Position numbers: made by a program | Origin: Escherichia coli O127:H6 str. E2348/69 | GTDB taxonomy: Bacteria > Pseudomonadota > Gammaproteobacteria > Enterobacterales > Enterobacteriaceae | Length of the DNA stretch: 64,000 bases | Strand: one strand, 5' to 3' | Assembly (NCBI RefSeq): GCF_000026545.1 | Contig: NC_011601.1 | In this document: piece by piece, positions 1-6,000 of the stretch | Layout of the letters: each line of letters begins with the position of its first letter | Numbering within the stretch: position 1 is the stretch's first letter

Positions 1-3000
1 CCCTCGCCACCTCTGATGTGTCAGGCATCCTCAACGCACCCGCACTTAACCCGCTTCGGCGGGTTTTGTTTTTTCCTGGCATTCTGGTTTACAATTCGCA
101 CGCCAGCCTGAACAACTGGCACCTGCTGCGCCAGCAGAGACAACCGATGGCGCACGATACCAAATTACACAATTCTGATGATTCTGCCGTCTTTGCCAGC
201 AGGCACGGGCGGCGTTCCCGCACTTTCAAATCTGACTGGTTCCAGCATCCCCCATGCACTGAAGAACAGGCCGAGTGGCTAATTCAGTGCTACCGCAGAC
301 ACGGATACGAGATTAAGAAAGCCCTCAGCCTCGATTATCGTCACTGGATAATCTCCGTCAGGCTTCCTTACTCCGAACGACCACCGCGTCCGTCCCGCAC
401 ATTCCAGCAACGCATCTGGAGGTAACGTGCGGGTATTACTTCGACCTGTTCTGGTACCGGAACTCGGGCTGGTGATCGTTAAGCCGGGCCGTGAATCCAT
501 GCCGGTATTCCACAATACCCGGGTACTGGTGGAGCCGGAACCGAAAAGCATGCGTAATCTGCCGTCCGGGGTCGTTCCTGCCGTTCGCCAGCCGCTGGCG
601 GAGGATAAATCATTACTGCCATTTTTCAGCGACGAACGAGTGATTCGTGCTGCTGGTGGCGCTGGCGCATTGTCTGACTGGTTACTGCGCCATGTTAAAT
701 CCTGCCAGTGGCCACACGGTGATTATCACCACAGTGAAACCGTCATTCACCGTTATGGTACCGGCGCAATGGTGTTGTGCTGGCACTGCGACAACCAGCT
801 GCGCGACCAGACCTCCGAATCACTCGGGCAACTTGCTCACCAAAACCTGTCTGCATGGATGATTGACGTCATACGCCATGCAATGAATGGCTCGCAGGAA
901 CGGGAATTATCGCTGGCTGAATTATCCTGGTGGGCGGTCCGCAATCAGGTGGCGGACGCGCTACCGGAAGCGGTATTACGTCGTTCGCTGGGGTTGCGTG
1001 CGGAAAAAATCCGCTCAATGTACCGTGAAAGCGACATCGTACCGGGAGAGCAGACCGCCACCAGCATACTGAAACAGCGCACAAAAAATCTTGCGCCGCT
1101 GCCTCACGCCCACCAGCAACAGAACCCACCACAGGAAAAGACGGTGGTCAGCATTGCCGTTGATCCTGAGTCTCCGGAATCTTTCATGAAACGACCTAAA
1201 CGTCGCCGCTGGGTTAACGAGAAATACACACGCTGGGTGAAGACACAGCCGTGTGCGTGTTGTGGTAAGCCAGCCGACGATCCCCATCACCTGATTGGTC
1301 ATGGTCAGGGCGGAATGGGGACAAAATCTCACGATATTTTCACGCTACCGCTGTGTCGGGAGCATCACAACGAGCTTCATGCGGATCCGCTGGCGTTCGA
1401 AGAAAAGCATGGTTCTCAGGTTGATTTAATTTTTCGTTTTCTTGATCACGCCTTTGCAACTGGCGTGCTTGGGTAAAAGAGGTGACTGATGCTCATAGAT
1501 TTGGTTTTACCTTACCCGCCGACGGTGAACACTTACTGGCGACGCCGTGGCAGCACATATTTTGTATCAAAAGTCGGTGAGCGTTATCGCCGTGATGTGG
1601 CGCTTATTGTTCGCCAGCAGCAACTGAAATTAAACCTGTCCGGAAGGCCGGCAATAGAAATTATTGCAGAGCCACCGGATAAGCGCCGTCGTGACCTGGA
1701 CAATATCCTGAAGGCACCACTGGATGTACTGACGCATGCGGGGCTGCTCATAGACGACGAGCAGTTTGATGAAATTAATATTGTGCGCGGTCAGCTTGTT
1801 CCTGGTGGGCGGTTGGGGATAAAAATCACAGAACTGGAGTATGCATGAATAACCAGTATTTACAGTTTGTTCGTGAGCAACTCATGATTGCCACCGCCGA
1901 TTTGAGTGGATCAACAAAAGGGCAGCTTGAGGCCTGGCAGGAGAATGCCATGTTTGATACAGGGCGTTACAGGCGTAAAAAAATCCGGTACCGCGATGAA
2001 GTGACTGGAAAAATGATAACGCGGGATAATCCACCAATCCCGGGAAAGCAATCGCTGGCGAAGGGGGCGTCAATTCCTCTCGTCAGTCCGGTTGAGTTTT
2101 TGACATCATCGTGGCGGCGGGCTGTTCTGTCTCTTGAAGAACATCATAAAGCCTGGTTGTTGTGGTGTTACAGCGGGAGTATTTGTTGGGAATATCAGAT
2201 CGCGATAACACAGTGGGCGTGGAATGAATTTAATACTCAATCCGGTACCAGAAAAATTGCTGGGAAAACGCAGGAACGCCTGAAAAAATTAATCTGGCTG
2301 GCGGCGCAGGCAGTAAAAGCAGAACTTTTTGGTGGGGAAGGTTATGAATATCAGGAGCTGGCATTACTGGCGGGAGTGACAACTAAAAACTGGTCCAAAA
2401 CATTTACTCGTCACTGGGTTGCAATGAAACACATTTTTCACCGACTGGATAGTGAGGCTTTATTATTTGTAATGAGAACACGTTCAAAACAAAAGGCGGC
2501 ATTTTCAAAGCAAAGTGTTGCAAAAGTAGATTGAAAGGCATATATTTCATGCAAATCTGATATTTTGCCGATTTTGTACGTGATGGCAAAATCAAACAAA
2601 ACCCGCCCACAAGCGGGTTTTTTTGTGCCACTTATCTCGGATAGACATGGTGAATGCGCTGGTGGAGGAGATAAGGGTGATTTTTGTATGCTTGCAACAT
2701 TGATTTCGTAACGTTATTATCCTGCGCCCGGCCCTTTAGCTCAGTGGTGAGAGCGAGCGACTCATAATCGCCAGGTCGCTGGTTCAAATCCAGCAAGGGC
2801 CACCAACCGCCACTAGCCATCAGGAAAGAGCGTCAACCCTTTAAGTTGAGTGTGCGAGGTTCGAGTCCCCGGTGGTGGTCCATTATCGGTATTCTGCGTT
2901 GTTAGCTCAGCAGGACAGAGCAATTGCCTTCTAAGCAATCGGTCACTGGTTCGACTCCAGTACAACGCGCTACACTTATTTTCCCGGCTCGCTTTTGCGG

Positions 3001-6000
3001 GCCTTTTTTTTAAATGTCTCACAATTCAGACGGTTGACAGTTGTCTGTTTTGCGGGGAGTTTGTTAAAAGAAACTGGCATGGTGAATCCCCCTGTGCGGC
3101 TGTCTCTTGATCAGATCTCCTGATCAAGAGACTTCATCACCAGGTAACCCTCAACCATATCCTGAAGTCTGAACCAGCCATCCCACATGACTACCCAACC
3201 GGGGCGACCGGTGCGTTTGCTGTCATGCCATCGCCCCAGTTTCGCCAGTTTCAGACAGGCCCATTTCAGTGTCGGCATCTGTGACGGAAGCGGTTTTCCT
3301 TCCAGCTTAACCCACAGCAGTTTCCACTCTGTCGGCGTCAGTATTTTCTCACAGCTGTCATTTTGTGTTTCTTCACTGATACCGCCCTGCCGCAGGCCCA
3401 GCACCCGCACCGCGATAAACGCCTTGATAACCACCATGCGCTCGAGGTTATCCCGGGTCTGCATTCGCAGCGATTCCACACATGTACCACCACTTTTCCA
3501 CGCCTTGTGGTATTCCTCTATCAGCCAGCGTCGCTCGTAATGGCTGACGATACGTCGCGCATCGGCGGCACTCGCCACTTTTTCTGACGTCAGCAGATGC
3601 CAGCAGGCGCCGTCCTCTGCCTGCTCCCGGCAACAGACATACGTGAGCGGGAGCGCCTGGCCGCTGTTGTCGGGATTTTTTATGCTGACTTCGCTGTAAC
3701 TGATGAACATCCGGGCCTGGCGGGCTGCCCGCCCGCCTTTTTGCATCACATTCAGCGTGTGGCTTCCCGCGGTTGCCAGGACTTCCGGCAGTTCGAAGAG
3801 CTTGCCGGGTGCTTCTTCCAGCCGGCGATTCTGTGCTGCACGCACCACGAAGCGCTGCCCGTGGCTGACTTTATAATGCAGGTAATGCCAGATATCCGCT
3901 TCCCGGTCACAGACAGTGATTACCCGTTTCTGTATCTCCCCCAGCCATTCGGCCATGCGCTCCGAAGCCTGCTGCCAGCGGTAACTTTCTTTTTCTTCAT
4001 AGGGACGTTCTTTTCGCTGGTGCTTAACACCGTAGGTGTCCGTGGCACGACTCCAGCGCTGCTGTTCGATAAGACCGACTGGCAGGGCGCTGTCGGGGGC
4101 GTACATCAGGACAGAGTGAGCCAGCAGCCCGCGCGTCTTCGGGTTAGTGGTGGTATTCCCCAGGTCATCAGATGCCGTACTGTGACTGAAGTTAATGGTG
4201 GTGGTGTCTTCCAGCGCGAGGAGCAGCGGATGAGCCTCACATGCCCTTACAGTGGCGGTAAATCCGGCTTCGGCAATGGCTTGCGGGGACACAGACGGGT
4301 TACGTATCAGGCGGTACGCACCTTCAACCTGAGCAGTGGACTGGGATGATTTCACAATAGAAAGACCTGCATGCTGAGCGAGAGAAGAGGCCAGTGACAC
4401 AAGGCGTCGTGTACGACGCGGATCACCGAGACGGGCATGTCCAAACTGCTCGTTAGCCCATGAATAACAATCAGAAAGTACCATAACAGACCCGAAGAAA
4501 ATGAAATATAAGAGAAGATCAACAGGTGAGGAAAAAGTTCAAAAAATCGCTGCCGGGGAGGAAGGAAACTACCGGATGGAAAGAGTCCCCCTAAAGCAGA
4601 CTGACAGACATCACAAATCCCCGGGTGGGGATTTGTGTATAAGAGACAGCTGTGCGGAGGGGCAATCAGCGAGTAGGTATATGGGATAATCGCGGATTCA
4701 GGTGCTGGTACTGAATTCACCGGGAGGCACCCGGCACCATGCAATGGCACATAGCGCCACTCTCCAGCCCCTCTCCGGAGGGGCTTTCTTATGGACAAAA
4801 AAAGCCCGCGCAGGGAGACGCGGGCGGCAAGGAATAAACAACAAAACGTGAAGTAATATTTCAGCTGGCGAATAATATCCGACAGTAATCACTCTGCGCA
4901 ATAGCGCGGCCTTTTTCGTATTGCGGACTGTTGTCTCTCTTCTGCCATTGTCCTGTAACTTCCGGACTTCAGCCCGCTCCTCATTTTACTCACAATATTA
5001 TCCCGGCCGGGAGGATTCATGGCATTTAAATACTATGATGTTGTCAGGGCGGCGTCGCCGTCAGACCTTGCGGAAAAGCTGACACATAAACTGAAAGAGG
5101 GCTGGCAGCCGTTTGGTAGTCCGGTGGCCATAACCCCTTATACCCTGATGCAGGCGATTGCAGCAGAAGGTGATGTGGTCGTCAGTGGTGCAACTGAGCC
5201 GGACTGGTTCTACGTGGTTGTGCTTGCCGGACAGTCCAACGGCATGGCCTACGGTGAAGGGCTTCCGTTACCGGATTCTTACGATGCTCCGGATCCGCGC
5301 ATTAAACAGCTGGCGCGCCGCAGCACGGTAACTCCGGGTGGAGAGAGTTGTACGTATAACGACATCATCCCGGCTGACCACTGTCTGCATGATGTGCAGG
5401 ATATGAGTACGCTGAATCATCCGAAGGCAGACCTGAGCAAAGGGCAGTACGGCTGTGTCGGCCAGGGCTTACATATTGCCAAAAAACTGCTCCCGTATAT
5501 CCCGAATAACGCGGGGATCCTGCTGGTACCATGCTGTCGTGGTGGTTCGGCATTCACCCAGGGCGCGGAGGGGACATTCAGTGCGGACGCGGGGGCCAGC
5601 CAGGATTCGGCGCGCTGGGGGGTGGGTAAACCGTTATATCAGGACCTGATTGCGCGCACTAAAGCTGCATTACAGAAGAACCCGAAAAATGTGTTGCTGG
5701 CGGTGTGCTGGATGCAGGGAGAGTTTGACATGAGCGCCGCCACCTACGCACAGCAACCTGCGCTGTTTACAGCCATGCTGAAGCAGTTTCGTGCTGACCT
5801 CACTGTGTTTAACGCGCAGTGTCATGGTGGCAGTGCTGTAAATGTGCCGTGGATTTGTGGTGACACGACGTATTACTGGAAAAATACATACGCTACCCAG
5901 TACGACACCGTGTACGGCGGGTATAAAAACAGGGAGAGTGAGGGCGTTTATTTTGTGCCCTTCATGACAGACGGTAACGGCGTCAATACCGCCACTAACG

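Follow-up and report, generated by a model that had tools for sequence, protein, structure and literature searches.

Shiga toxin (Stx)-converting phages, exemplified by the Stx2a phage Lyz12581Vzw, have a late region that is laid out in the same order as that of prophage PP6 of Escherichia coli O127:H6 strain E2348/69: the antiterminator gene Q, the late promoter pR', the terminator tR', ileZ/arg-type transfer RNA (tRNA) genes, a further terminator, the small RNA (sRNA) gene STnc100, the esterase gene nanS-p and the lysis genes S-R-Rz, with flanking DNA that is about 91-95% identical between the two. Compared with the Stx2a phage, PP6 lacks stxAB, its middle tRNA gene is degenerate, its STnc100 gene is interrupted by an insertion sequence (IS) and its morphogenesis genes are of a lambda-like, long-tailed type; its Q is a PF06323-type protein of 229 amino acids (aa), whereas that of the Stx2a phage has 144 aa. 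Two stx-negative relatives, a prophage of the O55:H7 strain RM12579 and vB_EcoP_phi296, carry tRNA-Arg, the terminator, STnc100 and the esterase gene without a toxin cassette, as PP6 does. Where the interval between the tRNA cluster and the start of the esterase gene can be matched, the O55:H7 allele has 95.3% identity to that of PP6, and from tRNA-Arg on the two hardly differ. STnc100 is uninterrupted in both relatives, whereas in PP6 the element ISEc13 lies inside it. Here we analysed a 64,000-nucleotide stretch of the E2348/69 chromosome that carries the PP6 late region (the window, to which all coordinates below refer unless stated otherwise). We consider it highly probable that the region between the tRNA genes and the esterase gene is a toxin-free accessory slot, that ISEc13 entered STnc100 through its choice of target and that the late genes are little affected by it.

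Three other described systems help to place the insertion. The first is IS50/Tn5, with which ISEc13 shares inside-end (IE) and outside-end (OE) type termini, a transposase that aligns over its full length, three Pfam domains and a transposase stop codon located inside the end repeat. ISEc13 is nevertheless a separate element, with a length of 1,550 bp, a 457-aa transposase (477 aa for the Tnp chain in PDB 4DM0), a target duplication that is usually 8 bp rather than 9 bp and an apparent preference for CCCC-N8-GGGG targets. The second is IS629 in Stx2a phages of O157:H7 strains (PST1-1; Yin et al. 2015, PMC4587872), where, as in PP6, the Q-dependent late transcript contains an IS ahead of the lysis and morphogenesis genes. 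IS629 belongs to another IS family and splits a protein-coding open reading frame (ORF), whereas ISEc13 splits an sRNA gene, and encapsidated DNA after induction has been shown for the IS629 phages. The third is the pair PasD1 and PasD2 of the E2348/69 prophages PP4 and PP2, described in Pearl Mizrahi 2021 and in a 2026 preprint by Zhu, Shabalina & Storz as prophage-encoded, Hfq-associated sRNA genes that lie, like that of PP6, between Q and the esterase or lysis genes. Their authors report PasD1 and PasD2 as structural relatives of STnc100; both are intact and abundant according to these sources, whereas PP6 has a copy that belongs by sequence to STnc100 proper and that ISEc13 has split.

The window corresponds to NC_011601 1440001-1504000, and its gene coordinates are offset by 1,440,000 from the NC_011601 table (E2348C_1407, listed there at 1441845-1442534, corresponds to 1845-2534 here, and E2348C_1409, listed at 1445019-1446872, to 5019-6872). 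The prophage adjoins ompW and carries nleA, nleH and nleF downstream. This effector set has been attributed to PP6 (PMC5685641), and we therefore assign the prophage to PP6, a known lambda-like, effector-carrying, Shiga-toxin-free prophage of the enteropathogenic E. coli (EPEC) reference strain. The stretch 2500-5100 is found at 100% identity and full length in three E2348/69 assemblies; among 5,426 complete E. coli genomes, none besides these has it unbroken. The features from Q to the esterase gene are as follows, with pR' leader and minus-strand sRNA coordinates drawing on published entries from RIL-seq (a method that ligates and sequences interacting RNAs).

1845-2534, plus strand: Q late antiterminator, 229 aa (phrog_304 'anti-termination protein Q-like', E=1.9e-107; Pfam PF06323, E=4e-91; RefSeq 'bacteriophage antitermination protein Q')
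2518-2546, plus strand: pR'-like late promoter, sigma-70-like, TTGCAA-17-TATATT (consensus scan)
2553-2628, plus strand: short pR' leader RNA, ending at tR' (sequence and published RIL-seq RNA start at 2553)
2730-2805, plus strand: tRNA with CAT anticodon, ileZ-type, annotated tRNA-Ile (ARAGORN; Rfam tRNA, 72.5 bits; RefSeq)
2807-2882, plus strand: degenerate second tRNA at the argN position (ARAGORN Lys(ttt); below the Rfam threshold; without RefSeq annotation)
2896-2970, plus strand: tRNA-Arg(TCT), argO-type (ARAGORN; Rfam, 68.1 bits)
2986-3011, plus strand: intrinsic terminator after the tRNA cluster, GGCTCGC-TTTT-GCGGGCC plus T8 (terminator scan)
3010-3014, no strand: empty stx slot with a clean junction (three-way alignment)
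3048-3099, plus strand: 5' fragment of an STnc100-family sRNA gene (Rfam RF02076, sub-threshold, 23.6 bits at 3048-3177)
3092-3099, no strand: left copy of the 8-bp target duplication, CTGTGCGG (sequence)
3100-4649, minus strand: ISEc13, IS4 family, Tn5/IS50-like, 1,550 bp (RefSeq name; IS50-type ends)
3111-4484, minus strand: ISEc13 transposase, 457 aa, antisense to the late transcript (NCBIfam NF033590, 511.6 bits, cut-off 160)
4650-4657, no strand: right copy of the 8-bp target duplication, CTGTGCGG (sequence)
4650-4796, plus strand: 3' fragment of the STnc100-family sRNA gene, with its terminator hairpin at 4766-4785 (RF02076, 75.5 bits at 4620-4796, gathering score 47; terminator scan)
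4797-4978, minus strand: Hfq-bound sRNA 'E2348C_1409.E2348C_1408.IGR', a homologue of EcOnc08/21/42 (Pearl Mizrahi 2021, Table S6, NC_011601 1444797-1444978)
5019-6872, plus strand: intact nanS-p-type esterase, 617 aa (Pfam DUF1737, SASA and DUF6645; phrog_143)

Stx2A (319 aa) and Stx2B, as annotated in phage Lyz12581Vzw, served as tblastn queries against all six frames of the whole window, and the best match had E=0.49 over 27 aa, which indicates that no stx is present. Stx1 and Stx2 are homologous and roughly 55% identical, and an Stx2 query should also detect Stx1. A blastn search with the stx2AB interval of the Stx2 phage matched the window in the flanks only, at 2976-3012, 3015-3099 and 4713-5018. 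A hidden or degraded toxin gene was rejected on the basis of these two empty searches. The original prediction, which was made from the sequence alone, had proposed that the canonical stx locus contains no toxin genes and holds only about 130 bp, an IS50-like element and about 370 bp of leader. The searches bear out the first statement, and the measured lengths agree closely with the second: 2971-5018 consists of 129 bp (2971-3099), the 1,550-bp IS (3100-4649) and 369 bp (4650-5018).

The position of the toxin genes relative to the IS came out differently from what had been supposed. We aligned three sequences, namely the window without the IS and one copy of the duplication, the stx-negative O55:H7 RM12579 prophage and the Stx2a phage Lyz12581Vzw, and found them to be colinear except for about 1.33 kb with stx2A and stx2B in the Stx2a phage. 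On its left, the stx2AB cassette is bordered by the T-run of the post-tRNA-Arg terminator (3009/3010), and on its right by the block TGTSTCACAATTCAG (window 3015). This puts the slot at 3010-3014, about 85 bp upstream of the IS, and the IS thus lies beside the toxin position rather than in it. The slot junction in PP6 is the same as that in the stx-negative O55:H7 prophage, and no stx remnant was found at the slot. In 322 of the 5,426 E. coli genomes, the interval from the tRNAs to the esterase gene is uninterrupted, with neither stx nor IS; its identity reaches 95.3%, and these genomes come from varied sources and serotypes (for example O55:H7, O104:H4 and uropathogenic E. coli isolates). Given these 322 genomes and the shared junction, the toxin-free state is the common allele of a shared mosaic module, with no visible scar of loss.

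Could PP6 have held stxAB here in the past, with a deletion, whether mediated by the IS or earlier and precise, removing it later? On either side of the slot, the module shares about 91-95% identity with Stx2a phages, and loss of stx by Stx phages is generally known. Nevertheless, the IS is flanked by both copies of its 8-bp duplication, and joining its flanks gives an uninterrupted STnc100 allele, so that the IS caused no deletion next to itself; on these grounds, and with the rejoined allele being a common one, an IS-mediated deletion of stx was rejected. The distance of 85 bp between the IS and a slot devoid of stx remnants, the junction matching that of a toxin-free prophage and the many uninterrupted genomes speak against either form of loss, as does the PP6 morphogenesis module (tape measure, J and Lom by annotation), which is long-tailed and lambda-like, unlike that of the compared Stx2a phage, a member of the Sepvirinae. 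We therefore regard a former stxAB in PP6 as very unlikely. Nothing suggests that a toxin gene was lost or displaced by the IS, or that the slot and the insertion are related. In the reading we prefer, 2970-5018 is an accessory slot within the late-gene leader, and PP6 bears the toxin-free allele of a shared lambdoid module whose native order is Q, pR', tR', three tRNAs, the terminator, stxAB (a component confined to toxin phages), an STnc100-family sRNA gene on the plus strand, a convergent gene for an Hfq-binding sRNA on the minus strand, the nanS-type esterase gene and S-R-Rz.

The roughly 370 bp after the IS had been described as leader, and we found that the flanks of the IS hold two sRNA genes: the STnc100-family gene on the plus strand and the convergent gene for an Hfq-bound sRNA on the minus strand. 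The sequence GCATGGTGAATCCCCCTGTGCGG follows the RF02076 consensus and stops exactly at the left IS boundary, and CTGTGCGGAGGGGCAATC starts exactly at the right boundary; we conclude from these breaks that the IS lies inside hairpin 1 of STnc100. Once the IS and one copy of the repeat are removed, the consensus ...GcaUGGUGAAUCCCCCuGuGCGGaGGGGCgAcU... is exactly restored, and precise removal gives back ...CCCCCTGTGCGGAGGGG... in the locus. The 5' fragment is colinear with the uninterrupted copies in two comparison records (L002 and L004, the latter being the O55:H7 prophage). Uninterrupted STnc100 scored 185.7 bits in the Stx2a phage, 158.3 bits in the stx-negative phi296 and 137.7 bits in the O55:H7 prophage. 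It begins 75 nucleotides (nt) after stx2B in the Stx2a phage, a distance downstream of the stx2 operon that was independently reported in 2025 (PMC12370729), and directly after the tRNAs in phi296. In PP6, the gene is not contiguous, with the 1,550-bp IS and the 8-bp duplication following model position ~52. As the 5' 52 nt are now 1.56 kb away from the 3' 147 nt, we infer that this STnc100 paralogue is inactivated. Among the RIL-seq table entries listed, none corresponds to the plus strand of the STnc100 interval, which does not imply that such an RNA is absent. A TTGACA at 3034-3039 was considered as a candidate STnc100 promoter; no convincing -10 element was found at the proper spacing.

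The element itself fits the IS50-like label that it had been given. Its left end matches the IS50 IE at 19 of 19 positions, including the GATC sites, and its right end matches the OE at 17 of 19. The transposase contains the Pfam domains Tnp_DNA_bind, DDE_Tnp_1 and Dimer_Tnp_Tn5 and aligns over its full length with Tn5 transposase (PDB 1MUH/4DM0, E=7e-83), and the element is flanked by an 8-bp direct repeat. ISEc13 occupies 27, 29 and 30 places in the E2348/69 chromosomes, at 99.9-100% identity, and two more on pMAR2. The E2348/69 count is the highest among the 5,426 genomes, for which the median is 1; full-length copies are also present in roughly 870 other E. coli genomes. That copy counts vary among E2348/69 laboratory lineages suggests recent activity of ISEc13.

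The window holds another ISEc13 copy, which has the opposite orientation and is located outside the prophage:

41392-42941, plus strand: second ISEc13 copy, between IS200C and the 3' end of trpA (1 mismatch in 1,550 nt)

It is flanked by a 9-bp duplication, AGCCTAGCT, at 41383-41391 and 42942-42950, and sits inside a G/C hairpin that adjoins a match to Rfam STnc490 (RF01405) at 41275-41398, which in turn abuts the IS200C transposase gene. Together, the two inverted copies bracket 36.7 kb comprising the PP6 late region, the effector genes and the right end of the prophage, and recombination between them would flip this segment. The near junction (2500-5100) matches all three E2348/69 assemblies end to end.

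Both window copies are inserted in the loops of G/C hairpins, TCCCC-CTGTGCGG-AGGGG and CCCCC-AGCTAGGCT-GGGGG. To these we added 14 further copies from E2348/69 and other strains (L006-L019), which gave 12 independent sites after loci were merged; apart from the window copies, each site is the single top-ranked place per record in one search, and the sampling is thus not systematic. A duplication of 8-9 bp was present in 13 of the 14 further copies, and the pMAR2 copy, which has none, was excluded from the motif count. The motif CCC[CT]-N8-11-[AG]GGG, centred on the 8- or 9-bp duplication, was found at nine of the 12 independent sites; two of the remaining sites are near matches, and one, inside ygfK, has the left half only. 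As background, the same motif occurs 11 times in 60.9 kb of the window. Most sampled sites lie a few tens of bases past the end of a gene, and several are then followed by a T-run, which makes them terminator-like. These data point to an apparent preference of ISEc13 for CCCC-N8-GGGG palindromes, often terminators, in which either the sequence or the hairpin structure might be recognized. The published Tn5 target consensus, A-GNTYWRANC-T, differs from this preference.

The STnc100 insertion is best explained by such target choice: ISEc13 would have transposed into hairpin 1, duplicating 8 bp, since TCCCC-CTGTGCGG-AGGGG fits the preference. Alternatively, the position of the IS might be due to chance and the hairpin pattern elsewhere to a sampling artefact, as could happen with only 12 independent sites, one of which (ygfK) has no right half-motif, and with a pMAR2 copy that has no duplication. 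However, a motif found at three-quarters of the sites but only 11 times in the 60.9-kb background is hard to ascribe to sampling, and so is the location of most sites just after gene ends, several of them with a T-run; we judge a chance position to be quite unlikely. With regard to the element as a whole, we lean somewhat towards the view that ISEc13 is a target-specific Tn5 relative that enters CCCC-N8-GGGG hairpin loops, mostly those of Rho-independent terminators and sRNA hairpins, and that its spread to about 30 copies in the EPEC prototype strain would have systematically split terminators and at least one prophage sRNA gene.

Next, we considered how the IS might affect the late genes. 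It does lie, as originally noted, between pR' and all lysis and morphogenesis genes, and it had been proposed on this basis that the insertion could be polar. In that case, the late transcript would be halted by the terminators of the IS or, within its 1.55 kb of untranslated antisense RNA, by Rho-dependent termination, and PP6 would produce neither lysis nor particles. The position of the IS ahead of every late gene favours polarity, as do four plus-strand terminator-like hairpins that a terminator scan placed in the IS (at 3564, 3656, 3719 and 3969), and insertions of the IS50 type are generally polar in ordinary operons. On the other hand, once loaded with Q, RNA polymerase is insensitive to pause and terminator hairpins for tens of thousands of nucleotides (PMC9388147), and lambda Q suppresses polarity (Forbes & Herskowitz 1982, as cited in PMC12360218). 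In the native leader, Q already has to get past tR', the post-tRNA terminator, that of STnc100 and a hairpin at 4894-4909; these amount to at least four intrinsic terminators in the absence of any IS, and resistance to termination must therefore be a property of the late transcript anyway. Furthermore, in thirteen O157:H7 strains IS629 lies in the Stx2a phage immediately after stx2 and ahead of the lysozyme gene, and these phages, with an IS between stx2 and the lysis genes, still yield DNase-protected DNA, from which they were sequenced after recovery from supernatants of ciprofloxacin-induced cultures (PMC4587872). By analogy with these systems, the IS probably does not block the PP6 late genes, and we consider the polar effect unlikely. 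After induction, Q-modified RNA polymerase would read through the IS, antisense to the transposase gene, and late expression would be little affected beyond 1.56 kb of extra DNA to transcribe and package.

The anatomy of the locus, including where the stx slot lies, that the duplication is intact and that the sRNA gene is split, is directly visible, and several observations weigh against the remainder of our account. The sample behind the target motif is small and not systematic. The 3' STnc100 fragment may still be made, for example by read-through or processing. The IS carries plus-strand terminator-like hairpins, the strongest at 3719-3737 (GGCGGGCTGCCCGCCCGCC then TTTTTGCATC), and the PP6 Q comes from a different family than lambda Q. 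The published E2348/69 RNA-seq data are from uninduced cells only, and in them Q, the holin gene and other late genes are near zero, as expected. A literature search returned nothing relevant on induction of PP6 or of other E2348/69 prophages.

The expectation that Q, pR', tR', the ileZ/arg tRNAs, the nanS-like esterase gene and S-R-Rz follow the Stx-phage arrangement largely held. Q has its family matches, TTGCAA-17-TATATT at 2518-2546 is a putative pR', and tR' is recognizable in the sequence as the hairpin CCCGC-CCACAA-GCGGG plus T7 at ~2600-2628. The esterase and lysis genes are placed downstream as in Stx phages, with STnc100 present but interrupted. For the tRNAs, the expectation was correct in part: an ileZ-argN-argO-type cluster is present between tR' and the toxin slot, and its outer members, the CAT and Arg(TCT) tRNAs, are in place and confirmed by two tools, but the middle one is degenerate: aligned with the tRNA-Arg(TCG) of related phages, it lacks 1 nt and differs in its anticodon loop. 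The terminator at 2986-3011 is kept in both the Stx2a phage and the stx-negative relative, also by alignment.

Two Hfq-bound RNAs have been reported within this region, in the tables of Pearl Mizrahi 2021. One, 'E2348C_1407.tRNA_28.IGR', spans NC_011601 1442553-1442672 (window 2553-2672, plus strand) and was recovered in chimeras with the core sRNA MgrR. Its start at 2553 is 7 nt 3' of the -10 hexamer, and an RNA from this position fits a short pR' transcript that terminates at tR'. The pR' leader RNA also shows weak Rfam similarity to isrK and isrJ. A predicted MgrR site, GGAUAGACAUGGUGA, at ~2640-2654, is downstream of tR'; its presence in the chimeric RNA would therefore mean that tR' is read through to some extent in uninduced cells. 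The other RNA is the minus-strand sRNA at 4797-4978, a homologue of EcOnc08/21/42 of enterohaemorrhagic E. coli, for which RIL-seq chimeras with the 5' untranslated regions of cfa and dppA are listed. Its terminator (4825-4804, minus strand) is back to back with the STnc100 terminator (4766-4785, plus strand) in the terminator scan. It matched no Rfam family at threshold, with weak OmrA-B and anti-hemB matches only. This sRNA is probably unaffected by the IS, because it ends 148 bp away from it and was detected in the published data. We also considered whether it might be PasD2 or PasA and rejected both, since Table S6 puts them in PP2 and PP4.

Downstream of the esterase gene, the lysis cassette (7023-9327) contains the following genes.

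7023-7238, plus strand: holin (PHROG; RefSeq)
7243-7593, plus strand: YdfR-like protein
7657-8190, plus strand: endolysin (PHROG; RefSeq)
8833-9327, plus strand: Rz (PHROG Rz-like spanin; RefSeq)
9053-9238, plus strand: Rz1, embedded in Rz (PHROG; RefSeq)

An unusual gap of 640 bp separates the endolysin and Rz genes (8190-8833). It contains short ORFs at 8268-8480, 8461-8733 and 8483-8614, which look hydrophobic by eye and some of which are annotated as hypothetical proteins.

Elsewhere in and around PP6, a second and different Q-family gene lies ~4.5 kb upstream of the window Q (L001 11024-11545, just upstream of the window). The two Q-family genes have between them hokD and three genes on the opposite strand, which suggests a mosaic or nested early-to-late junction. 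By coordinate conversion, the published sRNA PasB (NC_011601 1466261-1466343) maps to 26261-26343 on the minus strand, in the PP6 tail-gene region. A partial OmpW-family gene fragment annotated at 40545-40685 probably marks the right attachment site of the prophage, and just inside it, at 38317-39810, are an espO fragment and what is left of transposase genes of the IS256 and IS3 families.

Much of this is already published or annotated, including the strain, PP6, the IS annotation, toxin-free prophages with Stx-phage late regions, the location of STnc100 next to stx and the minus-strand sRNA. Two details were not found in the literature examined: the splitting of the PP6 STnc100 gene by ISEc13 and the preference of ISEc13 for CCCC-N8-GGGG hairpins. 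ISEc13 does not occur in the main text of the 2026 preprint on Pas and STnc100 sRNAs (0 occurrences), and papers that do mention the element appear, by title and abstract, to deal with resistance or to survey genomes. Both apparently unreported details are minor, the target preference being based on a small sample, and the presence of one of about 30 ISEc13 copies inside an sRNA gene beside the toxin site is an ordinary event. The comparison does allow the toxin slot of the module to be defined to within a few bases, with PP6 as a clean empty allele. It also bears on comparisons of STnc100 and PasD between strains, as the PP6 copy in the EPEC reference strain is split by ISEc13. If a full survey confirms the target preference, such specificity would be unusual among Tn5-type elements. 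If ISEc13 does enter such hairpins, its spread could have changed read-through and the sRNA repertoire in the reference strain of the EPEC sRNA interactome.

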